NCBI GenBank assembly: GCA_000503875.1
Contig: CP006913.1
Coordinates: 810,001-842,000 of the forward strand
Source: Candidatus Saccharimonadota bacterium
GTDB taxonomy: Bacteria; Patescibacteriota; Gracilibacteria; Absconditabacterales; Absconditicoccaceae
Reading direction: 5' to 3'
DNA length: 32,000 nt
Each line of letters starts with the position of its first letter. Positions within the stretch are counted from its first letter, which is position 1. The notes below the pieces were generated by a model that made no database searches, was not told the DNA's origin, and was given only the letters and a program-made list of their open reading frames with translations. The position numbers were made by a program, and so were the translations under genes. Below, piece after piece: positions 1-31,989 of this stretch.

Positions 1-451
1 AGGCTTTTTAACAATAGCCTGAAGTTGAGCCCTTAATATAGGGTCAATTTCTTCAAATCCAAGCATAGAAGAACGTACAATTTCGGTAGAAAATATTTTG
101 CAGATAAGAGATATTGCTGGCCTTTGCAATGGACATTATACGACACTACAATTTAGTGATTTATCAAATTGATCAGAAATCATAAGTAATCAAAATATAA
201 CAATGAATTTACAATCAATAACAAAAATTCTAGGTAAAGATAATACTAGCCTCTCATTATGATTAATCATAGACAATCAACGATGAGCTACCAAAAATTC
301 TACAACACATATATATAGATCAATCGGAACAAATTGTTGATATATAGGACAATATGGAACAACTGGGGATATAAAAATAAATATCCCTGCAAATCAATCT
401 GCAGGAACATATAGAGGGAAAATATATTATTTATTGATAGATAATAATTAA
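1..451 (+). CDS. 3' end of a secreted/surface protein (partial at window edge)
   Basis: The frame starting at nt 2 is open to TAA 449-451 if 6 in-frame TGA are read as sense. The C-terminus ...IPANQSAGTYRGKIYYLLIDNN resembles the end of 3447..4019 (...PQNQTPGTYTSTFTITLPNF). Confidence 0.55.
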
Positions 452-1404
452 CGTCTTAATATTATTTTTAGAATTCGTCTCAAAACAAACAAAGCAACAA
501 AAAATCAGACTATTCCAAAAATCAACATCCATGGTACGAGGATAATGTTTTTATCATAAGAAAAATCTATTTTTTGTTTGTATTCTTCTGGCACATAAGA
601 CAGATCCAATCTGGTATCCAAAAGTGAAAATCACTGAAAAAAGAAACTATAAACTCATTTATAAAAAGGAATATCCGCAAAACGAAATTCAATCATCGAA
701 GACGTTCAATAATCTATTATTTTAGATGAAGTAACCATTCTTTCATATCCCAATATATTTGATAATCTTCAGGTATATTGCAAAAATTCTGGTAAAATTC
801 ATCAATTAGAAAAAGGCAGCAAAACAACCAAAGCACTATCTTCTTTATCTATATAATAAATCACAGAAGAATCATTATCAAATTCAATATTCCTTTTAAA
901 ATCTCCCACAACATATCCATCCATAAAATTTGCCTTACGAACAATAATATCAAAAGAAGATCAATCTTGCTGAAGACTTTTTTCCTGATCCAAAACGTGA
1001 TAAACCAAACATCAATTTACTTCACCAGAATATCCCAAAGGAAAAGAAAGCGTTCAAGTTTTTTGAACCACAGATCAAGAAGAAATTAACATAGTTTTTT
1101 CCAAAAAATCAACATAAGGTGAAAATAGCCTTCATTGATGAGAACATGCTTTGTTATGAAGTTCATCATTAGTTAATTCACCATCAACAAATCACAAAGA
1201 AAGAGAAACCTTTTCTTTGCTAGTATTTGCAATTTCCAAACAAAATTCATAAGGAACACCAGCTTGAGCTACAAAATTCATTGATTTACCATCAGCTCAT
1301 GTTGTATTATTACAAAAAGATACAGAAACATCTCAAAGAGAATCCGCAAAAGAGAAAGACAATCACAACAAGAATATAACAATCAGAAAACTTATTTTTT
1401 TCAT
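448..1404 (-). CDS. Surface protein paralog A: N-terminal signal peptide, C-terminal membrane anchor (318 aa)
   Basis: Runs from ATG 1404 to TAA 448-450. I checked every triplet and found no TAA/TAG but many in-frame TGA. N-terminus MKKISFLIVIFLLGLSFSFA. C-terminal hydrophobic helix plus basic tail ...WMLIFGIVGFFVALFVLRRILKIILRR. Shares the motifs FCNN..G and (I/L)(I/V)VRKA with the next two genes. Confidence 0.7.
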
Positions 1405-1423
1405 TCATTTCACAACGATAAAA

Positions 1424-2179
1424 TTATTTTTTATGGTTAGGCTTTTTTATCGAAGATTTTTTTTTGGAACGAATCATAGGAATCAAAGAATATACCAACA
1501 ATATTCCACAAACAATAATACCTATTTTTGCTATAGTACGAGTATTTTTCTTTACTAAAAGCATAATATCATCAAACCATTGAAAACGATATGGTTCTCA
1601 CATAACAGACACTTTTATATTTCCAGCTTTACGAATTACTAAATTAAAAGGAGAACTAGCAGAAAGTTTTTCTGAAGTTTCTAAATTAATAGCGAGACAG
1701 GTAATATATTTCCCTGATGCAACATCAGAAGCTGATAATCTAAAATGTTTTATAAGTTGTTGTTGTGCTCACAAATCTACAACACCTGATAGTTCTTCAA
1801 AATCAGAAACAGTGAAATCTCATGTCAAACCAGCTACATTAGAACATACAATATTTCCATTAGCATTTAATGAACCAGGAACAATATTTGCAACAATACG
1901 CAAAGGAGTAGAAGATTGATTTACCAAAGCAATACAAATATCTTTTTTTTGATTTGGTTTCATAATTAAATCAAGAGAAGAAGACAATTGATTAGTACCA
2001 AATCCGTTATTACAAAATTTCAAAGATACTTTATTAATCTGATTATTATGCACAAGTCACATATTTAATTGATCATTCAATATTTTAGTATCTGTTGTAA
2101 CATTATTTTCTCCTTCATTTTGTGCAAAAACAAATGAACTCAATAGGATAGGAACAAAAATCAAAAAATACTTCTTCAT
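1424..2179 (-). CDS. Surface protein paralog B: signal peptide and C-terminal membrane anchor (251 aa)
   Basis: Runs from ATG 2179 (MKKYFLIFVPILLSSFVFAQ) to TAA 1424-1426. The frame was checked triplet by triplet. It contains track ORF 1820..2053 and reads through several TGA. Motifs LKFCNNGFG and FNLVIRKA. C-terminus IAKIGIIVCGILLVYSLIPMIRSKKK. Confidence 0.7.
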
Positions 2180-2214
2180 ACTCTCTCTATAATAAATATA
2201 AAAACAAGTCTATA

Positions 2215-3189
2215 CTATTCAGCTGTTTTCTTTTTAGGAACAATAATTTTTACAATCAATCCAAGAATAATCAATGCAAGAATTACATACACCCAAGAAA
2301 AAATAAACAAAGATGCAGTTTCTTTTATAATAGTTGGTTGTTTAAATTTTTCATCTATACCTGTTGCATCAAATTCAAACAAAGGTTCTCCAATAACTGA
2401 AACTCTAGCTGAAAACAATCATTTATAAAAAGGGACTATTCCCAAGTTTACAGATATTTCATAAACATCTCCTGGTAACAATTTTCTTATAGGAGCATCA
2501 AATGGTCTTTCAAAACCAAGGGGGTTATATAGTTTTCCAGATAAAGAAACATTTTGAGTTAAGTTTCCATTGTTTTTTACATTAAATTTCAACATCAAAT
2601 CTCAATCTTCATTAACACTTGCTCAGATATTTTTATTTGACGAATAAAGTGATCACGTAACTGGAATAAGTTGAACAGTGTTGGATATAGAATCTTCTGA
2701 TCATACAAACAAATTAAGATGGACTGCTTTACGAACAACAAGATTAAACATTCCTCACATATTTTCAACTTCGGCTTTACCTAACTGATATGCAAGACAT
2801 CCATAATACATACCCATAGATCCCAAAGGGGGAGAAACCATTTCTTTTACAGTAATTGAAGAATTTCATGATAAAATCAATTGTCTATTTGAATTATCTA
2901 CCAAGAATCTAGCAAAATCGTTTGAGGTATCACATAATTGATTACCTCATTTACTAAAAGAAGCTTTGGGAAAAGAATATTTTACAACAATATTTTCATT
3001 AGATTTATTTTCAATATATATACAAAGTTCTTGTTTTTGTCACGGTTCTATCATAATTGTATATTTATTAACAAGACTACCAGTACCGTCATTACAAAAT
3101 CACAAGGAAACATCTTTTATTCCTTCTTGAGCAAAAGAAAAAGAGCTAAACATAAAAAGTCCTGCCAACAAAAGAAAATACTTTTTCAT
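2215..3189 (-). CDS. Surface protein paralog C: signal peptide and C-terminal membrane anchor (324 aa)
   Basis: Runs from ATG 3189 (MKKYFLLLAGLFMFSSFSFAQ) to TAG 2215-2217, frame checked. Motifs LGFCNDGTG and FNLVVRKA. C-terminus SWVYVILALIILGLIVKIIVPKKK (track ORF 2215..2418). Confidence 0.7.
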
Positions 3190-7719: not shown

Positions 7720-9951
7720 ATGAAAAAAACCAGCTTTTGAATACTTCTTTTAGCATTATTTTCTTTGATAGGAAGTACTACTTTTGCAAGTGATTGTAAA
7801 CAAGTAGAGTTTGAAAATGGAGATGGAAGGGTTTGTGTAAATATAGAAAAAGATGATGATGAAACATTTCAATTAGAGACAGACATTGAAAAAGGTAATT
7901 GAGCATTACGATGCTGAATTCTTCTTTCCAACAATACCTACAAAGAAATCGCTGGTTGTAACAATGAATTTTTTGTAAGTAATTCAAAAGAACAACTTAT
8001 TAAATTATATATCAAATTAGGATCAGAGTATCCAACAGATTGGGACGGGAAACCAAACAATAAAACTGAACGATTATTTCCTCAATGGATGTATGATTTT
8101 GAGGAAGGAGAATGGACAGACGGTATTTCAAACAATGATGATGACGATGACGATAACGATGCCGGAGATGTTGATAATTTCTATGTAACTACTGACGATA
8201 CTACGCCTTCTATCAATCAACGAGTTGATCTCAAAATAAAAGCTCGTGACTCAGATAACGGTACGGTAACTGATTATACTAATGCTGTTGAATTCGTTGT
8301 TTATTACAAAACTTCTTCATCTTCTTCTTGGAGAGAAACTACTTCTTCTACGTATTTTGAATTGGATGATGATTATGAAGATGGATATGATTTCTCTTCT
8401 TCTGATGATGGATACGTAACTTTAACTGATGCTATCAGATTCAAAAAAGATTATGAATATAAAGTTGAGGTTGTTGATGAAGATGACGAAGATATCTTAT
8501 GATACAAAACCTTTGATATAGGTGGTACCAGTAACGATGACGATAACGACGCTTGAGACGTTGATAATTTTTATGTAACTACTGATGATACTACGCCTTC
8601 TATCAATCAACGAGTTGATCTCAAAATAAAAGCTCGTGATAACGGTAACAATACAGTAACTGATTATACTAATGCTGTTGATTTCGTTGTTTACTACAAA
8701 ACTTCTTCATCTTCTTCTTGGAGAGAAACTACTTCTTCTACGTATTTTGAATTAAAATCTACTTATAATAATGGATACGATTTTTCTTCTTCTGATGACG
8801 GATACGTAACTTTAACTGATGCTATTAGATTCAAAAAAGATTATGAATATAAGGTTGAGATTGTTGATGAAGATGACGAAGATATCTTATGATATGAAAC
8901 TTTTGATATCGGTGGTACCAGTAACGATGACGATAACGACGCCGGAGATGTTGATAATTTCTATGTAACTACTGATGATACTACGCCTTCTATCAATCAA
9001 CGAGTTGATCTCAAAATAAAAGCTCGTGATAACGGTAACAATACAGTAACTGATTATACTAATGCTGTTGATTTCGTTGTTTACTACAAAACTTCTTCAT
9101 CTTCCTCTTGGATAGAAACAACATCTTCTACATATTTTGAATTAGATGATGATTATGAAGATGGTTACGATTTTTCTTCTTCTGATGACGGATACGTAAC
9201 TTTAACTGATGCTATTAGATTCAAAAAAGATTATGAATATAAGGTTGAGATTGTTGATGAAGATGACGAAGATATCTTATGATACAAAATATTTGATGTT
9301 GGTTGAAATGATACTATAAGTGACGAAGATCTAGATAATTTTTATGTAACTACCTATGATACATATCCAGATATTAACGAACGAGTTAATCTATTTATTA
9401 AAGCTCGTGATAACGATAATAATACAGTAACTGATTATCGTGGTACGGTAAAATTTGATGTATATTACAAAAAAACTTCATCAAGTTCTTGGACAAAAAC
9501 AACATCTTCTACATATTTTGAATTAGATGATCAATATGAAGATTGATATACGTTTAAATCCAGTGATGATGGTTACGCAACACTATATTATGTTATTAAA
9601 TTCAAAAAAGATTATGATTTTAAAGTAAAAATTGTTGATGATAATAATGACGATATTTATGGTGAAAAAATCTTTTACATTTGAGGAGACTCTTCTGAAA
9701 CTGATTGATACACTGCAGCAGAAATAGAAAACATAGAAAAGGTATATAATTTACGAGATAAATTAATACAATCACTCAAAAGTTCTTCTAGTAAACTTAG
9801 ATATAATCAAACACGAATAACTATGAGCAATGATTTAAAAGAAGAAATGAGAAAAATTATAAATGATGAGGATGATAAAGAATATGATGATTACGAAGAA
9901 TTTTGAAAAGCTTTCAACGAACGATATTCATATACATTAAGGAATAAATAA
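7720..9951 (+). CDS. Secreted acidic tandem-repeat protein (743 aa)
   Basis: Runs from ATG 7720 (MKKTSFGILLLALFSLIGSTTFA) to TAA 9949-9951, frame checked line by line. It has four repeats of about 130 aa (NFYVTTDDTTPSINQ.VDLKIKARD...YKVE.VDEDDEDILGY) separated by poly-Asp linkers. Only fragment 8089..8502 appears in the standard-code track. Confidence 0.8.
8131..9690 (+). repeat. Intragenic tandem repeat: 3 near-identical 390-bp units (8131, 8521, 8911) plus a diverged fourth (9301 to about 9690)
   Basis: The landmark string ttgataattt(c/t)tatgtaact recurs at 8171, 8561 and 8951 with an exact 390-bp period. Units 2 and 3 are identical over long stretches. Confidence 0.9.
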
Positions 9952-14644: not shown

Positions 14645-15481
14645 ATGCAAGAAAGCATTATCTCAACAAGTATATCTTATATTCAAAATAACCGATGAAC
14701 AATTATCGGGAGATGATTTTGAGGAATCGTAGCTTTTATTGCCATGTATATTATCATAAAATATATCGTCAATAGAGTAAAGAGAAAAATGGAAGGAGAT
14801 ACACTTATAGCAGATGTTTATGCCAAAAAAAACTCAAAATTAGTAGGAAGTATTATTTTTATTGTACTAATGATTTTCAATATTCTCTCAACATTTGAAA
14901 TTATTGGATTTGATGTAGCAATCATTATGGGAGGTATTTCATTGAGTCTATGATTCGCTATGGAAACAACAATAGGCAACATGATTTCATGAGTATTTAT
15001 TTTGACCAACAAAAAGATTAAATTGGGTGATTTTGTAGAGTTTTTGGGGAAATTAAACTTAAAAGGAATCATAGAAGAAGTAAATGTAAGATATACGGTT
15101 ATCAGAAGCTTTGACAAAAGAAGAACCATTATACCAAATAGTATTGTAGCAAAAACGCCTATCAGAACATTGAAATCTGAACCAATTCTTAAAGGAGAAC
15201 TTTGATTTACTGTTCCTCGCAATACACCATTTGAAATGGTAAAAGCTATTTTCACACAAATTATTAATAGTAATGATAAAATACTCTACCCAGAATATTG
15301 CAGTATTATGATAGAACATTTTGATAGTACAGGAATACGTTTAAAAGGATTCTTTTTCTCAAATCCAGCAAAAAGAGTCCCATTTCTCATAGCGAGAGAA
15401 ATAAAATGAATACTCTTTGAAGAATTAAAAAAACGTGGAATTGCAATTCCTTATCCACATATAACCATTACTACTGAATAG
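14645..15481 (+). CDS. MscS-family mechanosensitive channel, paralog 2 (278 aa)
   Basis: Runs from ATG 14645 to TAG 15479-15481. Motifs IMGGISLSLGFAMETTIGNMISGVFIL, KLGDFVEF...GIIEEVNVRYTVIRSFDKRRTIIPN and C-terminus ELKKRGIAIPYPHITI. Several TGA are read through. Confidence 0.85.
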
Positions 15482-16809: not shown

Positions 16810-17916
16810 TTACACATTAAACTTAAAAATCATAACATCACCATCTTGCACAACATATTCTTTTCCTTCCAATCTTACCAATCCTTTCTCTTTTGCCTTT
16901 GTCCAACTTCCATGAGCCAAAAGATCGGTGTATTTTACCACTTCTGCTTTGATAAATCCTCTTTCAAAGTCCGTATGAATTGCTCATGCTGCCTGTGGCG
17001 CTGTTGATCAAATAGGAATAGCCCAAGCTCTTGACTCTTTCTCTCCTGTCGTAAAATAATACATCAATCCAACCTTATTATAGGCCAATGAAATCAAATC
17101 ATCTAACGTAGGGATATGAGCTATATTATCGATAGCCAACAACTCTTTGATAAAATCTTGTTTCTCTTCTCCATCAAAATCCATCATTTCAGATTCGAGT
17201 TTTGCACAAACAATAGACACAGGACTATGTAATTTTTCTTCAAATTCTTTTTGAATCTCTCCTGAAGATCATATATCATCTTGAGAAATATTGATAGCAT
17301 AAACAAACGGTTTCATTGTCAAAAAATTATATGGTTTAATCAATTTCCATTCTTCATTGGAGAGATCATTTCTAAGAACATGAGCAATTTTTCCTTCTTG
17401 CAAGACTTTTTGGATACGAGCAAGTGCATCAGCCAATTTCACATCATCTTTATTCGCAGCTATTCTAGATCTCTTTTGGATATTAGGCAATACTCTCTCT
17501 ATTTGTTCCAAATCAGACAAGATAAGTTCTGTATTGATGATTTCAACATCTCTCATGGGATCAACAGCCCCTTCCACATGTACCACGTCAGTATCCTTAA
17601 AATGTCTCAATACTTGTACAATAGCATCTACTTCTCTAATATGGGACAAAAATTTATTTCCAAGTCCTTCTCCCTGACTAGCTCCTTTCACCAATCCCGC
17701 AATATCCACAAATTCGATAGCCGCATAAACGATCTTCTGGGTGTTAGACATTTTAGAAAGTCGTTCTAGTCTCTTATCTTTTACATTTACGATTCCAACA
17801 TTAGGTTCGATAGTACAAAACGGAAAATTTTCCGCTGGTGCTGCGTATGATTTAGTCAATGCATTAAATAACGTCGATTTTCAAACGTTAGGAAGTCCAA
17901 CAATACCGATCTTCAT
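16810..17916 (-). CDS. ychF: Ribosome-binding ATPase YchF (368 aa)
   Basis: In [21 protein letters not shown] the P-loop Gly is TGA 17881-17883. Motifs [51 protein letters not shown] and ...[19 protein letters not shown]. The two track ORFs share one frame, and the gaps were checked. Confidence 0.95.
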
Positions 17917-19480: not shown

Positions 19481-22400
19481 CTATGCAGAAGCTGAAGTAG
19501 GCGGTACTTGTTCAGGAGTAGCTGCTGGTGCGGGTACATCTTTTTCAGAAACCCCTAGTCTTGCAGCCATCTCAGCATCCACAAATTCTCTCTTTCTTCC
19601 ATATTTCTTGGAAGAATATTCTTTGAGAATAGGTACGATTTTTAGGTTTTGATAATCCTTAGTATAGATAGCATTCATACTAAATACACGAGTTGTTGAG
19701 TTATCAATATTGAGTTTAATATACGCTTTATAATTGGCGATTCCTACAATATCTTGTCCTGATAATACCGGAGCATATTCTTTTTCCAAGAATTCTGCAT
19801 CGGGAGCACCGACCTTAAATGATTGCATTGTTCCAACGTTACCAAACACGGCTGCTTTTACATCTCATTTTCCTCCTCCATCACCACCAAGTCCTTTAGC
19901 TGGTTCTAGCTGTGCAATATATTGATGCGCCATAATCAAGCAAAGTCTATATTTTCTGGCTTCTGACAAGATATCCGCAAAAGTTCCTGAAACAAAGTTT
20001 TGGAATTCATCGACATAGAGATAGAAATCTTTTCTGTCTTTTTCTGGCATTTTGGCTCTCGCCATAGCTCATGTATAAATTTTAGAAACAATAATCATAC
20101 CCAGAAGTTGTGCATTTAACTCCCCAATTCTACCTTTACTGAGATTGATAATCAGAATTTTTCTATTGTTCATTACATCTTCGAACGTAAACGCTGATTT
20201 TGTTTGTCCAATAATATTTCTAATCAATCTATTGGTATTAAATGATACGAATTTAGCAGACAAATACGGGATAATTTCTTGTTTTTCTCTATCTCCCATA
20301 GAAGCAAATGTCTTATCCCGCCAGTTTCTTACCGTAGCATTGGTTACTTTTTTACATTTATATTCTCTATAGCTTTCATCAGTAAATAATCTGACCACAT
20401 CAAGCAAAGTTGGTCTATCATCAAAATCTTCCAACAAGGTCAAACTTCCATATTTAAAATATTCTTGCAACCTTGGACCAAAAATTTCTGGACCAAACAT
20501 CTTCAAGAAAATTTCTGTAGCATCATTTACTACTCTATCTGCTTCATCCAAATTACTAATTTCATAGAGATTAAGTCCCATTGGTCTTTCTTCATTTCCT
20601 GCGTCGAAATAGATAACATCTTTTGCTCTCTCTTTTGGAATATAAGCAAGGACATCTTCTGCTAAATCGCCATGCGGATCAATCAAACAGATTCCATCAC
20701 CATTCCAGATATCTTGTCTTGCCATTGTTTGCAAGAATACGGATTTACCGGTACCTGATTTTCCAATACAATAATGATGTCTGGTTCTATCCTCTCTTTT
20801 CATATAGACCGGAGAATAGTTGTTTCTGTAGATATTTGCTCCAAGAAGCACTCCATCTTTAAATACTTTATATCCATGAATTTGTTTTTCTCCAATTTCT
20901 TTTACAAATTTATGCCCATCTTTTTCTACAATTTCTTTGCCTGTAAGTTGCTCAGAAGTATATTCAGTAACTGGTGTTAATTTTTCTTGTTTTTCTGTTT
21001 TTGTTCCTACTGCTCGATGATTTGGATATTCTTCCAAAATAGAACTAACACTTCCATTTTTATAGTTCTCTGCAAATTTACCATCAATAATATATCCGCC
21101 AAAATCTTTGAGTACTGGCAAATTTTCTGGTGCAGGCAACACTTTATATTGCATCCAAGAAATAGCTGGTGAACGGTTATATGCATTATCAGGGAAATGG
21201 AACAATGAAGCTAATTCATTTACTCCAAAATAATGTTTACTAAAGAAGAAACTCGTCAAACCAAACAATGCTGCAAACTTTCGCATTGGTTTAAAAAAGA
21301 ATCAGAATACATCATGTTTATTATTTTGATCACAAAATTCATTTCCATATTCATCTCCATATACATTGTACGAACTCGTTAATATATCCAAATTTGCATC
21401 CAAACTTTGTTTATTATCAGAAGAAGAAATCAACATTAATCAAGCTTGATAAAATGGCAAAGATGCTTCTTCACCCATACTATTGAGATAATCTTCTTTC
21501 GCTTTTACCATACGTACAAAATCCTTTCCTCCAACTTCACCTCCAGCCTGCTCTTCTTGTGGATTTTTATCTTTAGGACCACTAATCAACATTGATATAA
21601 GCGTAAAAGGATTGAGATATTTGAAAAAGCTTTTAATTTTGTAATGAGGATCGGTATATTTTTTATCATTTCTATAGAGTCCATTTGCCCATTTTTGAGC
21701 TTTTTTATTCATCCAATCACCAACGGGTTTGATAGGCATCACAATACTTACCGTATCATATTGAGAAATTTTTCCCATAGCATCGATAATATTATTAATC
21801 GGATCATCAGACATCTGTTTATAAATTCTGATATTATATACTTGGTTCTTTTTGGGTACCAACGGCATAATATCATAATATTTCTTTTTAAACAATTTTG
21901 GTGTTTCAATTCTTTCTATAGAACAATCGGAATATTGCGCAGAAATTGCTCCTTCCAAAATCTTTTGATATTCTGGGTAAACACCCATAATAAATGATAA
22001 TTGACCATCTTCATAATGATAAATCAGAGTTACCTTTGGTTTATAAAATAGTCGATGTAAGAACGAATCCATTGTACTCAATTCTCCAAGTTTGTGAACA
22101 TTATGAAAAACCTGAGACATACGACCTATTTTTTCCTTCATATCTTTTGCAAGTTCTTTTTGTTGCTCACGATCAGATTTACCATCATTTCTTGGAAACA
22201 TCACCTTGAGATAAATCATTCTAGGTGCGTTCAATACATCATAACAAAAATGAAGTAATTTTCTGATAAATTTTGTAAAAATTATTGCCAAAAGAGCAAT
22301 ACTAACACCCCACAAAATATAATACCCCCAAGAAGAGATAACATCCAATCAAAGAGAATCCAAAAAAGAAGTAGAAGTTCCTGTTGTTGTTTGAACTTCT

Positions 22401-22621
22401 TGAGAAGGTTGATTTACGACTACATCTGATTCCTTAGGTGCAACATAAGAAGTTTTCTTAAAAAGGAAATTTTTTACGCTAGAAACGCCTCCCATACGTT
22501 GGATACAATAAGATTTATCTGCTCCCCATGCGGTATTGGTGATTTTAGAAATATTTTCTGCCAAAATAGGATTTTTATCATACACGGCTTGAAGTTGTTG
22601 TTCGCACTGAATTAAATTCAT
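19481..22621 (-). CDS. Type IV secretion coupling-protein-like P-loop ATPase (VirD4/TraD-like), single 1046-codon ORF
   Basis: Five track ORFs (19481.., 19865.., 20069.., 21440.., 22349..) are all in one frame, separated only by TGA (junctions translated). N-terminal region and TM helix YYILWGVSIALLAIIFTKFI. Walker A IGKSGTGKSVF followed by ICLIDPHGDL. Walker B-like YLYVDEFQNF. Also RKYRLCLIMAHQYIAQL. TAG at 19481-19483. Confidence 0.75.
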
Positions 22622-24412: not shown

Positions 24413-27376
24413 ATGGATAAAAGAGAATTTCCCGCAAGTTTCGATCATACAACAACGAGACAACTCTACGACCAACGAGAGGCAAAAAAACTATTTACAC
24501 CAGATGATAACCATAGCTATGATGGTACTTTTGTCGTGCCTATTCCTCCGCCAAATGTGACAGGAATCCTCCACTTAGGACATGCTATGACCATGGCTCT
24601 CGAAGATATTATGATCAGACATGCTCGTATGAACAACAAAAAAGCTCTTCGAGTACCTGGTACTGACCATGCTGGAATTGCCACACAAGTTGTAGTAGAA
24701 AAAAAAGTTGCCAAAGAAGAAGGAAAATCTAAAAACCAATTCGAAAGATCTGAATTTATCAATAAAATACGAGATTGGGCAAGTTCATGTAGATCAACAA
24801 TCGTCAATCAGACCAAAATGATGGGGTCTGCCTGTGATCGATCAAGAGAACAATTTACTCTCTCAGAAAAGCTTTCTCGCGCCGTTAGAAAATCATTTGT
24901 AAACCTTGCAAATGCACAAAAAATATATCAATCAAATTATATTATCAATCGATGTCCTAGATGTCAGACCGTACTTTCTGACTTAGAAGCCGAACACAAA
25001 GACACAGTAGGAAAACTCTATTATATCCAATACTTTAATTCAGATAAATCTGCGAGTATCACCGTTGCAACCTCTCGTCCAGAAACTATGTTTGGAGATG
25101 TGGCAATTGCTGTGCATCCAGAAGGGCAACGAAAAGAGCGAATTGGTAAAACAATTTGCATCCCAATATCCAACAAGGAGATACCGGTGATTTCAGAAGA
25201 TACGGTGGCACTAGATTTTGGTACATGAGCGCTCAAAGTAACTCCCGTACACGATCCTGTCGATTTTGCCCTTGGACAAAAACATCATCTCCCTCTAGAT
25301 ATTTTTGCATTTGATAAAGCAGGTATCTGGACTGAAGTTTCTGGTGAATTTAGCGGAAAAGATAGCAAAAAAGATTTCGCAGAATTTATGGAACAATTGG
25401 AACAAAAAGGACATCTTACAAAAACCGAAGACTATCCAACGACCGTTCCTCACTGTGAAAGATGTAACACGAGAGTTGAACCCTTAGTTTCCAAACAACG
25501 ATTTGTTGACGTAAAAGAATATGCAGACAAATCTATCAACGCCGTAAAAACAGGTGAGACAACGATTCATCCTGCGAGATTCAACAAAACATTTTTTGAT
25601 TGGATGGAAAATATTAGACCTCGATGTATTTCTAGACAACTTCGACGAGGACATAGAATACCAGTTCGATACTGCGAAAAATGACACGCTCATCCTATGG
25701 ACGAAGATGCTTTTTTCGAAAGCATCGAACAAACAGATGGATTTGTATTGGGACATATAGTTTTCAACCTTGTTGCTGATGATAGACTAGGAAAAACATT
25801 CTCTATCGAGAAATTAGTAGATCTTCTCAACACAACAAGTCTTACTCCACAAAATGGAACAATCGGAGATATTTATCACACAATTTACAGCACAAAATTC
25901 AAAGATAATCAAACATTACTCAATCAAATAGAAACAATAAAAACAGCCATTACAAACAAAGATATAAATCAGATTACATTATTATTAAATAGTATTCCAA
26001 ATATCAAAACAACTGACAATGGACAATTCACATTAGAATTTGCATGTAAAACTTGTGGAAGTACAACAATACACCAAGATAATGATGTATTAGATACGTG
26101 GTTTTCAAGCGCGCTTTGGCCATTTGCGATTATGGGACGACCAGAAAATACGCAAGATCTCGCTGAATATTATCCTAGTGAAGTATTAGAAACAGGGTAC
26201 GATATTATCTTTTTCCGAGTTGCGAGAATGATGATGATGGGGTTTGCCAACACCGGAAAATCGCCATTCAAACACGTATACTTGCATGGTCTCGTAAGAG
26301 ATGAAAAAGGGAAAAAGATGTCCAAATCCGCAGGAAATGGAATCGACCCAATAGAAATTATCAACAGTCATGGACCAGATGCCCTCAGATTAAGTCTTGT
26401 TTTGGGTGCGACTCCAGGAAACGATCTCAAATATTCATTGAGCAAAGTCGATTATGCTTCTAGATTTTTGCATAAGCTTCGAAATGCCTGTAAATACGTA
26501 GATATGAAATTTGAAGCAAGCGAATTATCTTGGGAAGAAGAACGTGATTTTATCACCACCAACTTCGCAGAAACAACAGACGCCGACAAATGGATCCTCA
26601 ATATTTTCGATCAACATATCGACCAAATCAATCAATATTTCAAAGATTTTATGTATGGAGAAGCTGGAAATAGCATTATAGAATTCGTTTGGAATTATTT
26701 CTGTGACTGGTATATCGAGATCACCAAATCATCACAATCAACCGTAACACCGCATATTCTTCGTTACAGCATTGGAACTATTCTCAAATTATTGCATCCA
26801 TATGCACCATTCGTCACAGAAACTTTACGAGATTTATTTAGTTTCAAAGGACATTTGATCCAACAATCACGACCAAAAACACTAGGCAAAGAGCCAGCTC
26901 GTGAGACATTCAATCTCTTCACCGAAGTTATCTGAGCAATTAGAAATCTGAGACAAGACAACGACATCAAACCAAACGAAAAAGTAAACGTTTTCATCAA
27001 AGGCATCGCCGACAAACAAGCATGGACAGAATATATTCCATTGATCACCAAGCTCAATACTGCTCTTTCGGTAATTATTATGAATGACAACGAAAATATG
27101 CAAGACAACGTCTATATCCAAGTGGTAGAAACACTAACCGTAGGTGTCCAGACGCACCAGGAAATCAATTGGGCAGAAGTTGAAAGCAAATTAACCAAAG
27201 AAATCGACCAGTTAACCAAGCACATAGAAAACCAAGATCGCATGCTCAACTCAGGCGATTTTCGCTCCAAAGCCCCTGCCCATATCATCGCTGATAGGGA
27301 AAAAAGCTTACAGGAGAATAGAGAAAAATTGATAAAGATGAATGAAGAGTTGGAGAATGTTAAGAAGAATAAATAG
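24413..27376 (+). CDS. valS: Valyl-tRNA synthetase (987 aa)
   Basis: Four track ORFs share one frame and are joined by 3 TGA; for example 25229-25231 is the middle Gly of FGTGALKVTP. HIGH motif PPPNVTGILHLGHA, KMSKS motif KKMSKSAGNG, DVLDTWFSSALWPF, and a C-terminal coiled coil. At least 15 CGA codons fall on ValRS-conserved Trp positions. Confidence 0.97.
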
Positions 27377-27524: not shown

Positions 27525-27827
27525 GTGTGAAGACATACTAATGCTCAAAATTTATCTATAACTATATATAGCATTAACAGTGTTATTTTTGCTATACGAA
27601 CAAGTGGTTTCATATCATCATATATTGCTAACTCATTTAAATTGACATGGTTAGCTGAGAATTTTATTCTAACTCCAATATTATTTATTCTATTTGGCGT
27701 AATAACTGTATATTATGTAAAAAAATATCAAATGAATATTGCATATAGCATAATAGTATCAATATTTCACTCTATATTATTACCCTTTTTAATACTAAAA
27801 TCTCACAAAAATGAATGATGAAATTAA
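27525..27827 (+). CDS. Small polytopic membrane protein (100 aa), start uncertain
   Basis: The frame is open from TAA 27516-27518 to TAA 27825-27827 (checked). GTG 27525 is the first canonical start codon, just after a TATAAT-like box. The protein has three hydrophobic segments. Confidence 0.4.
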
Positions 27828-28482
27828 AATAATTAAGATAATACTACGACCGGTTGCAATTATTATGTTATGAGTTGGTATTTTTTCGTATGTTACAAAA
27901 ACGCCATTATATGAATGACAGTATTCTGATATAAAATATCCTGAAGACACAACCTGAGCCACTATAGAACAACAAACAATAACTTGAGAAAGCATTACAT
28001 GAACAATAATAGACATACCAACAGATCCAAGAACATATTTTGATTATATTATAGAATATGGTAGTTGATGAATTGATTATATTTCAATAGCCCCGACAAA
28101 TCAACCATTAATGAATTCGAAAGCATGAAGTGAAAACACTTCAAGAATGCACGATTATTTATACAAAAATAGAATTAAATTTGATATACCAACAACAGAT
28201 AAACAATGATATATTATGTTTGTAACATCAAAGCCAGTTTCAAATATCAGTAATATTTTTTTATGAGTTAACGGCTCTACAATATGATGGTTAAATAAGA
28301 AAGAATCATTATCAGTAGAAAATAAAAACGAATATTTATACAAACTGAACCACATACCACTCATTGGGAATAATGATTATAATTTTCCAAAAGATTTATC
28401 GTGAAAAACAAATATTTATATAAATGCTGTGGTTTGAGAAAGCGACAATAAAATAGAAAAAATTATTATATTTTTCCAATAA
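27811..28482 (+). CDS. Signal-anchored hypothetical protein (223 aa), TGA-dense
   Basis: Runs from ATG 27811 to TAA 28480-28482, every triplet checked. By my count it has 13 in-frame TGA against 4 GGN Gly codons. N-terminal TM helix PVAIIMLGVGIFSYV. Confidence 0.6.
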
Positions 28483-28536
28483 CATCAACAAAATATTTTT
28501 CTAGAGAAAAACTAATTTATTTTCTAATCAAACATA

Positions 28537-29007
28537 ATGTTTAAGAAAATTATTGTGGCTTCTTTATTAATATCAGGAATATTTATTACATGATGTAGCA
28601 TAGAAAAACAAAATAGTGAGGACAAAACAACAATGACAGAAAATCAAATCTTTGATAAAAAAAAGGAATGCGCTAACTATAAAGACAAAATTATAGCGGA
28701 AATCGAGAAAAGAAATACTGAGTATACATACGATTGACAAGAGAGTTATGAAAAATTAGGATCTATTTTTTATAGTATACAGAAGAATACCTGCATGTAC
28801 GATACACGATGATTTTTTAAATATAACATAGATTGAAAAACAGAAAGTAGAGATGTAGTAACAGTATATGATTATTTTTCAAATGAAAAGGTTCTTCAAA
28901 CACCAAATTTTTGTAAAGATTCCAAAGAAAAATGGATTCCTTATAGACAATGAATATGTCTTGTAGATGATTTTTCACAGAAACTTTATGAACTTAAATG
29001 AGAATAA
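28537..29007 (+). CDS. Putative lipoprotein (156 aa)
   Basis: Runs from ATG 28537 to TAA 29005-29007, checked. In the signal plus lipobox MFKKIIVASLLISGIFITGCS, the lipobox Gly is TGA 28591-28593. 6 in-frame TGA. Confidence 0.65.
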
Positions 29008-29028
29008 TTTTATTATTATATATACATA

Positions 29029-29787
29029 ATGAGCGGTTCTTGATATATTGAAGAGTTTATTAATTACACAAAAAAGCCTGAATGGATTTGGTGAATAATA
29101 TTCAGTGTATTAACAGTTATATTATTTCGAGCAAAAAAATTTTTAATAAATTTTTTTTTCCGAACATTACGTAGAATAGATAATTTAATAAAATATATAG
29201 CCACAAAAGATTTATGATACTGAAACATAAACATAATTAGTGATACAGAAACGTACTTCATAAAATATGAAAAGCAAGGAAATTGACCAAAATTAAATTT
29301 AGCTAAAGGTCACGCTAAAATAGCGAAATATTCGGAAATAGAAGACAATGCTCGAAAAAAATATGAGAAATATGAAGAACTAAAATGATCTAAACGAATT
29401 GCTCATCATGAAATAATAACAAACGAAGAAGCAACTCATTGATGATATTATTTTTTTGAAAGAAAGTTTTCATTAAATTTTGATATATCAAGGATTAAAA
29501 AAGCTTATTTATATATAATCGTAGATGATGAATGCGAAATAACAATAAATGAATCCGATTTAGCAGAAAATATAAATTGAGAAAAGAAAAAAATAACCTC
29601 CAATGAAGCACTAGCCACATTAGATATAAAAGATTATTTGAAAAAAGGAGATAATCTAATAAAATTAAAAATCAGAAATATATCGTTTGAAACTCGTACA
29701 GATAATCTATTTGTAAATAGTACGGAAAAATGGAAACAAAATCCATATTGAGTTAAATATTGAATATGAATTAAATATATTAAATAA
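29029..29787 (+). CDS. Membrane-anchored hypothetical protein (252 aa) with a possible jelly-roll C-terminal domain
   Basis: Runs from ATG 29029 to TAA 29785-29787, checked, with 12 in-frame TGA. TM helix WIWGIIFSVLTVILF. The C-terminal YIIVDDECEITINESDL...LDIKDYLKKGDNLIKLKIRN recalls galactose-binding-domain-like modules; this is a similarity judged by eye only. Confidence 0.6.
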
Positions 29788-29826: not shown

Positions 29827-30285
29827 ATGCCCTACAAACACACCCAATTTAGTTATCTAATGCTAGTTGTTACCTTGATCGTACTAGCACTTTTCGTATG
29901 GGCGTATATAACGGCTTCTGCTGAGCCTGTTTCGTACAATTCTGGTCCAAATTTTGCTATGACGAGCATAATGGCTTTGATTGTTTTTCTTCTTGCTTCC
30001 TTCATATCACTCCAAGTACGTATTGATGAAAAACATATAGCAATCAAATTTGGATACGGGATTTTCAAGAAAAAGTTTTCGCTCGATGATATCCTATCTG
30101 CTAAAACCGTAAAAAATCATCGATATTATGGATGGGGAATCAGAGTATGGTTTTGGCCCAAGATGTGGATTTTCAATGTTTCTGGTTTTGACGCAGTTGA
30201 AATAAAAATGAAAAATGGCAAAACATACAGGATAGGTACGGACGAACCCAAAAAATTAGAACAAGCAATTCTGAAGATGGTGTAA
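29827..30285 (+). CDS. Two-TM membrane protein with a Trp-rich C-terminal domain (152 aa)
   Basis: Intact ORF in any code from ATG to TAA with no TGA. TM helices YLMLVVTLIVLALFVWAYI and IMALIVFLLASFISL, followed by YYGWGIRVWFWPKMWIF. Confidence 0.7.
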   Translation: MPYKHTQFSYLMLVVTLIVLALFVWAYITASAEPVSYNSGPNFAMTSIMALIVFLLASFISLQVRIDEKHIAIKFGYGIFKKKFSLDDILSAKTVKNHRYYGWGIRVWFWPKMWIFNVSGFDAVEIKMKNGKTYRIGTDEPKKLEQAILKMV

Positions 30286-30348
30286 TTTTCTTTTGTAAAA
30301 AGAAGCAAAATAGATACATTAAGATTGATTTATTCACTAACGAATAGG

Positions 30349-30888
30349 ATGAATAGAATTCAAAAATCAAAAGAATTTGCAGAAGAATGTTTAAAAGACA
30401 TAGATTCGGCACATGGGATAAAACATGCTGAGACTACTGCAAACTTTGCTAAAATTGTTTCTGAAAAAGAAAATATCAATACAGAATTATGTATTATTAC
30501 AGCACTTCTTCACGACATTGGAAGAAGCAAAACATGGAAACAAGAAACAATTGAAGACAATCATGGAGTTGATGGTGCAAAAAAAGCAAAAGATTTTCTT
30601 TTTTCATTAGAATTATCCAATGAAGAGGTTGATATGATTTGCGAAGCAATATCCCAACATTGTTTTCCAAACATTCAAACAAATCAAATTTCAAAAATAT
30701 TGCGAGATTCAGATAAATTAAATTCATTTTCAAAAGAAATGAAGTTGGAATATATCAAATATTGGAAGGAAAAAGGATGGGATGATGAAAAAATTACTGA
30801 ACAAATCAAAAAAGAAAGAGAATTTTATTTTAAGACATTTTACACGAAAACCGCACAAAAGATAGCAAAAGAGAATTTTACAGTATAA
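30349..30888 (+). CDS. HD-domain phosphohydrolase (179 aa)
   Basis: Contains HGIKH...ALLHDIGR (H...HD) and later RDSDKL. ATG 30349 is preferred over the TTG 30325 start used by the track. No in-frame TGA. Confidence 0.8.
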   Translation: MNRIQKSKEFAEECLKDIDSAHGIKHAETTANFAKIVSEKENINTELCIITALLHDIGRSKTWKQETIEDNHGVDGAKKAKDFLFSLELSNEEVDMICEAISQHCFPNIQTNQISKILRDSDKLNSFSKEMKLEYIKYWKEKGWDDEKITEQIKKEREFYFKTFYTKTAQKIAKENFTV

Positions 30889-30990: not shown

Positions 30991-31989
30991 ATGACTATGT
31001 CCCTCTATCAATCTCACATTCGAAAGACCATTCAAAAAGATATTTACCAAAAGCCTAGCTTTACCCTCCATCTCTTCGGTAAAGACTATTTTTGAACAAT
31101 CAAAACCAAAAAAATCGGACCTATTACCCTCAAACGATATCAGATTCTATGAATTGAATTGCCAAAAGATCATAAAGAAATCAGCAAAGCTATCCAAAAA
31201 ATAAAGTCTGAATTTTGACATCATTGGACAGATATTTTTTTTCAACGAGGTGTGACTACTTCTATCCAAACTTTTGATGTCAAAGACATCGACAACGAAT
31301 TGGCGAGTTCGCTCAGAGATACGAGATTAAGTCTTCGTACTCACTTCAAAGAAGACTATCATCTTATCCATTCATTTAGAGAAAATCTGCCAGAAAGTAA
31401 TATTATTATTGATATTACAAAAACCAATGAAGAATTACTCCGTGAAATGAACAAATCATCCAGAGTTCGTGTCAGAAAATGAATAGAAAATGGGATAACT
31501 TTTAGAACACTCCAAGAACACGAATATCAAAAGTTTTATAACAAACGACAAACAACAGCAGACAAAAAATGATTTAACACCATATCAGAAAACCAATATA
31601 CCAAACTAATAAAAGAGCTGATACAGACCAAAACAGGAAATGTAGTAATTACCGAAAAAGATGGTGAAATCTTGGCAGGAAGTATAGTTATTTATGACGA
31701 CAAAAATATGGTGTGACTCTATGGATTTGCTGACAGAACACATAATACAATAGGGGGACAACAATATTTGAAATTTAAAACCTTTGAACGAGCGAGAGAA
31801 CAAGGCTTTACAACCTTTGACCTCATGGGCGGCGCTCCTACAGGATTTCCTGAACATGAATTAACAAGCGTCAGTGCTTTCAAAGAATCTATAGGGGGTA
31901 AAAAAATAGAATATACAGGAAATTTCGATATCATCCTCAATCCTCGACTCTACAAAATTTTCAAACGACTATTCACTTTAAAAAAATAA
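30991..31989 (+). CDS. FemAB-family peptidoglycan aminoacyltransferase (332 aa)
   Basis: Runs from ATG 30991 to TAA 31987-31989, frame checked, with 6 in-frame TGA. The segment ...GSIVIYDDKNMVGLYGFADRTHNTIGGQQYLKFKTFE(CGA)AREQGFTTFDLMGGAP matches the Fem/MurM C-terminal signature. Confidence 0.8.

Follow-up and report, generated by a model that had tools for sequence, protein, structure and literature searches.

Evidence that the arginine codon CGA encodes tryptophan in an uncultivated Absconditabacteria genome

INTRODUCTION

We analysed a 32,000-nt stretch of bacterial DNA (contig CP006913.1 of assembly GCA_000503875.1, positions 810,001 to 842,000; referred to hereafter as the window) and in particular its valine--tRNA ligase gene, valS, which encodes the valyl-tRNA synthetase (ValRS). 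CGA, an arginine codon in the standard code, almost certainly encodes tryptophan in this uncultivated Absconditabacteria genome, a reading to which we assign a probability of about 0.93. It is based on the alignment columns in which the CGA codons of ValRS fall, on the gain in profile hidden Markov model (HMM) scores, on a scan of all residues at CGA, on the exchange of CGA with TGG among orthologues, and on the pattern seen in the LeuRS and UvrD proteins of related lineages. The interpretation had been put forward in a preliminary description of the same DNA; it is supported by these five independent tests and qualified by a few CGA or CGG codons of the clade that fall on basic residues, such as those in ndk and next to the KMSKS motif of LeuRS. 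The reassignment is already known: what was found here is a rediscovery of a 2021 prediction and leaves the published picture unchanged.

RESULTS

CGA codons of valS fall on conserved tryptophan positions

An NCBIfam assignment and the similarity to solved ValRS structures identify the gene at positions 24413–27376 (+ strand) as valS. It consists of 987 codons followed by a TAG stop, and contains 17 CGA, no CGG, 11 TGG and three in-frame TGA codons, in addition to 22 AGA, 1 AGG, 5 CGT and 3 CGC. The query was aligned with 70 ValRS genes from standard-code bacteria, all translated without internal stops, and CGA was set to Arg in this alignment, the choice least favourable to a Trp reading. Even so, 15 of the 17 CGA columns have Trp as their main residue, and in 14 of these it forms the majority (48–70 of the 70 sequences). 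Trp is invariant at codons 363 (25499–25501), 404 (25622–25624) and 602 (26216–26218), and nearly so at codons 143 (24839–24841), 180 (24950–24952) and 576 (26138–26140), with 69 of 70 sequences each. The QLWWGH motif is written with a pair of CGA codons, 411–412 (25643–25648), at which Trp is found in 69 and 70 sequences, respectively. Somewhat lower counts were obtained for codons 80 (24650–24652; 68 of 70), 120 (24770–24772; 66 of 70) and 690 (26480–26482; 62 of 70), while at codons 419 (25667–25669; W58/Y8/F4), 806 (26828–26830; W56/Y7) and 820 (26870–26872; W48/F14/Y5) Trp is accompanied by other aromatic residues. The column of codon 22 (24476–24478) is gapped in 46 of the 70 sequences, and all 24 ungapped ones have Trp. 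A comparison with the ValRS of Thermus thermophilus (1gax) gave a similar picture, the CGA codons aligning with 12 Trp plus the Trp at codon 22, two Tyr, one Leu, and one Arg located beside a gap. At codon 243 (25139–25141) the column is occupied by Leu, Tyr or Phe and never by Arg (L38/Y15/F9/M4/I3). The preliminary description had claimed a conserved Trp for every in-frame CGA that it located in valS; its 15 coordinates are all in-frame CGA codons, and those at 25130 (codon 240, considered below) and 25139 were missed.

The other codons of the gene served as controls. Fourteen of the 22 AGA codons fall on Arg-majority columns and none on a Trp column, CGT and CGC fall on Arg or variable columns, and 7 of the 11 TGG codons are on Trp columns. 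Among the 23 Trp-majority columns of valS, 14 are written CGA and 7 TGG, and the remaining 31 Arg codons occupy none of them (Fisher P = 1.4e-9 versus CGA). Given that Trp columns make up 2.3% of the alignment, the binomial probability of 14 out of 17 CGA codons falling on them is 9e-21, and coincidence by chance is excluded. As previously described, the arginines of the ISRQ, GHRIP, ARM and SRE motifs are encoded by AGA, all four being on Arg columns, and the tryptophans of DTWFSS and CDWYIE are encoded by TGG.

Translating CGA as Trp instead of Arg raised the score of the valS protein from 883.6 to 976.7 bits with the NCBIfam model NF004349, and from 806.4 to 897.1 bits with TIGR00422. The gain with these curated ValRS models amounts to 91–93 bits. 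Furthermore, an HMM was built from the 70 standard-code ValRS alone and all 20 amino acids were tried at the CGA positions. Trp scored highest (998 bits), followed by Tyr (963) and Phe (957), and the same scan recovered Arg for AGA, Arg for CGT, Trp for TGG and Gly for TGA.

CGA exchanges with TGG among orthologues

We then turned to five related genomes (L002–L005 and L020/L006) that have gene order in common with the window, providing 4,282 aligned orthologous codon sites. CGA or CGG occurs in at least one genome at 46 of these sites. Twenty-one of them, spread across seven genes (valS, ychF, the sigma-like, VirD4-like and FemAB-like genes, g22 and g28), swap only with TGG, 19 are invariant, and the other six swap with TGA, ATA, TTA, CTA/GTA or CAA. 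For the window genes and these five relatives, no exchange with AGA, AGG, CGT or CGC was detected at any of the 46 CGA/CGG sites, and no exchange with CGA or CGG at any of 180 Arg-codon sites. A change from CGA to AGA takes one substitution and is silent in the standard code, whereas CGA to TGG takes two. The standard code would lead one to expect the opposite of this pattern, in which the two-step change is common and the single-step change is unseen. CGA evolves as a synonym of TGG, and this exchange is the strongest independent evidence for its being read as Trp.

Within valS, TGG replaces CGA in L002 and L003 at codon 80, in L004 and L005 at codon 143, and in L005 at codon 820. The reverse is also seen: codon 122 (24776–24778, + strand; Trp in 60 of the 70 standard-code sequences) is TGG in the window and CGA in L002–L005, and the same arrangement, TGG here and CGA in orthologues, is found at 26099, 26117 and 26531. 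In ychF (16810–17916, – strand), codon 52 (17761–17763) is CGA in the window, L002 and L003, and TGG in L004, L005 and L020. The VirD4/TraG-like gene (19481–22621, – strand) has CGA at codons 190 (22052–22054) and 447 (21281–21283) and one of the two CGG codons of the window at codon 768 (20318–20320), and at each of these three sites all five relatives have TGG; the TGG at the adjacent codon 767 is CGA in all five. In the FemAB-like gene (30991–31989, + strand), assigned from the recorded gene calls and solved homologues, codon 267 (31789–31791) is an in-frame CGA, as had been pointed out before, with TGG in L002, L004 and L005; the solved homologues have Tyr (Staphylococcus aureus FemX) or Arg (9wqw) at this position. 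When MiaA, YchF and the FemAB-like protein were compared with solved structures, CGA fell on variable or hydrophobic positions, which are uninformative alone.

These results bear on two alternative explanations. According to the first, CGA would still be read as Arg, and the conserved Trp residues would have been replaced by Arg in these proteins. The standard code itself and the few CGA codons on basic columns speak for it, and nothing else does. It would require that 15 invariant or nearly invariant Trp residues of one essential enzyme had all turned into Arg in a gene whose true Arg positions use AGA or CGT, it entails HMM scores lower by 91–93 bits, and it is at odds with 21 sites that swap with TGG and none that swap with Arg codons in the window genes. 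The column and orthologue tests refute this explanation, and we regard it as extremely improbable. According to the second, the genomic CGA would not be what is translated, either owing to assembly errors or through RNA editing of CGA to UGG. No point in support of it was found; the same CGA codons turn up in six genomes that were assembled independently and come from different samples, and editing would have to convert both C to U and A to G in each CGA, at all 59 sites, and yet leave CGT and CGC untouched, such that this possibility too can be given next to no weight.

Other genes and lineages of the clade

The pattern extends beyond the window. The LeuRS gene of a sister metagenome-assembled genome (MAG) (GCA_028693445.1; 8217–10880 of contig L129) contains 20 CGA and only three TGG codons, which makes CGA its predominant Trp codon by a wide margin. 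Of its CGA codons, 17 could be aligned with the LeuRS of T. thermophilus, where they correspond to 12 Trp, three Phe, one Tyr and one Lys. In the UvrD protein encoded by another MAG (GCA_964469925.1; L130), two CGA codons fall on Trp, one of them that of the YGWRGA motif; the remaining CGA and CGG codons correspond to aromatic residues (four), Ile (one) and variable Arg positions (two). CGA also outnumbers TGG in L130 as a whole (49:21), as well as in contig Ga0210019_1003629 (L084; 36:27). As regards CGG, this codon too behaves as a Trp codon, the basis within the window being thin (two codons); in addition, the valS gene of a distant Absconditabacterales member (L007; 41% identity) has a conserved Trp at four of its five CGG codons, and likewise at four of its five CGA codons.

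The idea that CGA might be preferred at conserved Trp positions, as a means of avoiding misreading of UGG by tRNA-Gly(UCA), was considered and found to be unsupported. The share of codons at conserved Trp positions is 15/17 for CGA versus 7/11 for TGG in the valS of the window, a difference that is not significant, and 8/10 for CGA/CGG versus 12/12 for TGG in that of L007.

CGA and CGG codons on basic residues

Several observations weigh against the reading of CGA as Trp. The ndk gene, located 4.3 kb past the end of the window (16347–16778 of L001), has a single CGA, codon 89 (16611–16613 of L001), which aligns with the invariant phosphate-binding catalytic Arg, the residue being Arg in all homologues from PDB and the databases. 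Four lineages have CGA here and a fifth has CGG; none has AGA, CGT or TGG. The gene is under purifying selection, with a ratio of nonsynonymous to synonymous substitution rates (dN/dS) of 0.06–0.23 at dS values that start at 0.2 and exceed 1. In the LeuRS of the sister MAG, the CGA at codon 672 encodes the residue following KMSKS, which is Lys in T. thermophilus, and one fad site outside the window is AGA here and CGA in three relatives. Within valS, codon 240 (25130–25132), which is CGA in all five genomes, is ambiguous: the conserved residue to which it aligns (69 of 70 sequences) is Arg when CGA is translated as Arg, and the adjacent invariant Tyr when CGA is translated as Trp or X. Because the query has a one-residue deletion beside it, the site is uninformative, though it may fall on a conserved Arg. 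Finally, ARAGORN detected no tRNA gene in about 110 kb of the organism's own lineage (the window, L001–L006, L020 and L129), nor in L007 or L131–L136. In a related case, the ndk gene of L139 carries CGA in place of the CGT that the others have for a second catalytic Arg (GTIR), and a new CGT-encoded Arg two codons further on.

Between the HI0933-like flavoprotein gene and trpS (L001 16290–17040) lies ndk in the window's contig and in four other lineages; in L002 (19705–20554), L004 and L005 the equivalent slot is occupied by a cytidine deaminase gene (cdd), and L140 and L141 carry both. The presence of cdd in three relatives prompted the idea that ndk might be a recent import from a standard-code donor, which was rejected on account of its occurrence at the same position in four further lineages and of its dN/dS of 0.06–0.23.

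These cases could be accommodated by a dual or incomplete reassignment, in which CGA and CGG would mostly be read as Trp and sometimes as Arg, through a competing Arg-charged tRNA or through mischarging of the tRNA(UCG). Arg-requiring sites could then persist as CGA or CGG, as would be the case for the invariant Arg at ndk codon 89, maintained in five lineages despite purifying selection, for the GTIR site of L139, for LeuRS codon 672 on a Lys position, for the fad site with AGA versus CGA, and maybe for valS codon 240. However, dual decoding would place Arg in a share of the molecules at around 15 invariant Trp positions in ValRS and 12 in LeuRS, which should be costly, and the single change from CGA to AGA that would fix ndk codon 89 has not occurred. 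The absence of TGG from one site in five related sequences is statistically unremarkable, as 14 valS sites are also invariantly CGA, and the new Arg two codons after the CGA of L139 fits a true Arg-to-Trp change with compensation. On balance we consider such dual decoding improbable, and give a correspondingly slim chance to the notion that CGA and CGG form an ambiguous sense codon in this clade, mostly Trp and in part Arg, which selection exploits or tolerates. Set against the CGA/CGG codons that fall on Trp or aromatic columns, about 45 in number, the few basic-residue cases do not overturn the reading of CGA as Trp; they may leave room for decoding beyond pure Trp.

Candidate decoding tRNA

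For the organism of the window, the decoding tRNA is inferred from related contigs and the literature. A metagenome collection was scanned for tRNAs combining a tRNA-Trp-type acceptor stem (AGGGG...CCCCUG, with A1:U72 and G73) and a YCG anticodon, which returned four matches. One of these is on L084, a 14-kb contig with 129 in-frame TGA, 36 CGA, 8 CGG and 27 TGG codons, in which the order of an SLH-protein gene and ruvB is common to the DNA just past the window. Its tRNA(UCG), which folds into a cloverleaf and obtains 64 bits with the Rfam tRNA model, has A1:U72, G73 and U20. A second copy, 94.5% identical and syntenic, is present in L130, likewise a code-25 contig, and shows a compensatory change of one base pair in the anticodon stem. 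A20 is an arginine identity element of tRNA-Arg, and as a control it was found in 30 of 35 ordinary tRNA(UCG/CCG) genes with the same anticodon arm. The identity criteria applied here are those of Shulgina and Eddy (PMC8629427). With the L084 and L130 tRNAs as queries, a BLAST search of all DNA collected in this analysis retrieved only those two copies, and when synteny was followed through FtsW and a DUF4012 gene to the sister MAG and other lineages the tRNA was not adjacent there. A TrpRS gene (TIGR00233, 292 bits; 17040–18020 of L001, – strand) lies 5 kb past the end of the window.

The anticodon arm of the L084 tRNA is the same as that of Escherichia coli tRNA-Trp, which was considered as a sign of descent from tRNA-Trp. 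This was rejected since an identical arm occurs in 43 viral contigs, for the most part within ordinary A20-bearing tRNA-Arg(UCG) genes.

The interpretation that best accounts for the data has two code changes: UGA encodes glycine, as in NCBI translation table 25, and CGA together with the rare CGG encodes Trp, leaving Arg to be encoded only by AGA, AGG, CGU and CGC. The tRNA reading CGA would have the anticodon UCG and would lack A20, the lost arginine identity element; carrying the tRNA-Trp features A1:U72 and G73, it would be charged by TrpRS and not by ArgRS. CGU and CGC would be left to a tRNA-Arg(GCG) unable to read CGA.

Two further tRNAs with a tRNA-Trp-type acceptor were observed. The one at 2576–2649 (– strand) of L082 (Ga0137410_10050995, 2.9 kb) has G73, U20 and a CCG anticodon; at 66%, the GC content of this contig is far above that of any known CGG reassignment, all of which occur at low GC. 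The other, at 2934–3007 of L083 (ERZ779877 NODE-1597; GC 27%), is a Trp-type tRNA(CCG) on a contig in which TGA is a stop; it probably belongs to one of the known Firmicutes lineages with CGG reassigned to Trp.

Genomic setting and the reading of TGA as glycine

The window is AT-rich (GC 0.27–0.35). If only TAA and TAG are taken as stops, it is spanned by 30 non-overlapping open reading frames (ORFs) with 156 in-frame TGA codons, and the window makes sense as coding DNA only with TGA readthrough. The recorded gene calls for the source contig, e.g. that of the 987-aa ValRS, likewise pass through TGA. In addition to the genes described above, Pfam assignments were obtained for dnaA, a NUDIX gene, a SufBD-like gene, miaA, two copies of mscS, ychF, a cation-efflux gene and the VirD4/TraG-like gene. 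Relatives of the ValRS were searched among one genome per GTDB species; the nearest are Candidatus Absconditabacteria MAGs with 82–91% amino acid identity, followed by the one more distant Absconditabacterales MAG mentioned above (41%). The nearest loci are titled Candidatus Absconditabacteria or Absconditabacterales, some being labelled 'Peribacteria' in third-party assemblies. This sequence comparison identifies the source as an uncultivated member of the Absconditabacterales (candidate division SR1).

As to UGA, its reading as glycine agrees with valS codon 272 (25226–25228, + strand), a TGA aligned with Gly in 70 of 70 standard-code ValRS, and orthologues exchange TGA mainly with GGA, GGT and GGG. 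The use of TGA is very uneven across the window. Several short secreted or membrane proteins (448–3189, – strand, and 27811–29787, + strand) have 10–17 TGA codons per gene, ORF 448–1413 reaching 17 in 321 codons, while the ORFs at 29827–30285 and 30325–30888 have none and dnaA has only two. In one mscS-like gene, codon 17 (14693–14695) is CGA here and TGA (Gly) in four relatives, and the codon that follows is TGA here and CGA, CTA or GTA in relatives, which makes this a patch where both recoded codons swap. A 743-aa acidic secreted protein (7720–9951, + strand) contains four tandem repeats of about 130 aa, each with a CGA at the equivalent place (8221, 8611, 9001 and 9382), which under the new code gives INQ-W-VDLKIKARD.

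DISCUSSION

Comparison with known codes

Using Codetta, Shulgina and Eddy (2021, eLife 10:e71402; PMC8629427) predicted that CGA and CGG are read as Trp, and UGA as Gly, in Absconditabacteria; the preliminary description had referred to this prediction correctly. They reported tRNA(UCG), tRNA(CCG), tRNA(GCG) and tRNA(CCA) in most Absconditabacteria, and no tRNA(ACG). Two papers of 2026 (PMC13092985; bioRxiv 10.64898/2026.04.02.715157) list CGA/CGG to Trp as 'known or suspected'. The code of the window does not differ in kind from the published one: it is found in the same clade, at a GC content of around 30%, UGA is Gly, conserved Trp positions are occupied by CGA, Arg is mainly encoded by AGA, and CGG hardly occurs. 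A tRNA(UCG) without A20 and with G73 is seen in the related contigs L084 and L130. Over the window ORFs, Arg codons number 185 AGA, 50 CGT, 23 AGG and 8 CGC, AGA being dominant, compared with 59 CGA, 69 TGG and 2 CGG. The CGA:TGG ratio of 0.86 (59:69, counted over all ORFs) is at the top of the range of 0.19–0.87 given for eight published species, which was counted in Pfam-aligned regions (PMC8629427). A CGA majority was found in valS (17:11), in the LeuRS gene of L129 (20:3), in L130 (49:21) and in L084 (36:27), the two contigs L130 and L084 being beyond the published ratios. The reassignments were described in PMC8629427 as being at an early stage, with the reassigned codon not yet rebounded. 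In our own interpretation, the window counts of CGA, TGG and CGG would be expected from an old, settled reassignment at an AT-biased mutational equilibrium, CGG being a rare GC-rich intermediate between CGA and TGG, two synonyms of equal GC content.

Reassignment of CGG to Trp is also known from Anaerococcus and from RFN20/Onthovivens Bacilli (PMC8629427). There too an Arg CGN codon has been captured by Trp at low GC, with a tRNA bearing Trp identity features; in those Firmicutes, which do not belong to the candidate phyla radiation, however, only CGG is reassigned, by a tRNA(CCG), CGA remains Arg through tRNA(ICG), and UGA is unchanged. Translation table 25 of NCBI (Candidate Division SR1 and Gracilibacteria) shares the reading of UGA as Gly, but keeps CGA and CGG as Arg, which is contradicted by the behaviour of CGA here. 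A more remote parallel is UGA to Trp (table 4) in Mycoplasmatales and insect endosymbionts, where an extra Trp codon likewise occurs in an AT-rich reduced genome with a tRNA-Trp-like tRNA of altered anticodon, except that a stop and not a sense codon was captured and that the anticodon is UCA, not UCG.

Consequences for annotation

The earlier statement that no standard table has CGA as Trp holds: the NCBI tables in Biopython 1.87 end at 33 and none of them includes it, and no newer NCBI table with CGA/CGG as Trp was found in the literature. The mistranslation that it expected under table 25 can be seen in the public protein for the ORF at 29827–30285 (+ strand), which is identical to the translation with Arg at CGA; the deposited product has Arg at the CGA at 30121, a codon that is probably read as Trp. 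Public protein records of these bacteria have Arg at CGA positions at which Trp is almost certainly inserted. About half of the Trp residues in the predicted proteins of the lineage are thus wrong under table 25, an error that degrades homology searches, structure prediction and proteomic database searches.

If CGA and CGG were dually decoded, this would be a natural bacterial case of an ambiguously decoded sense codon. The small set of CGA and CGG codons on Arg positions is an exception to the otherwise published picture, and merits proteomics. Sense-codon reassignments are rare in free-living bacteria, and the window provides a clean worked example at the sequence level, in which one essential enzyme has 15 conserved Trp positions written as CGA and CGA and TGG swap freely among relatives.

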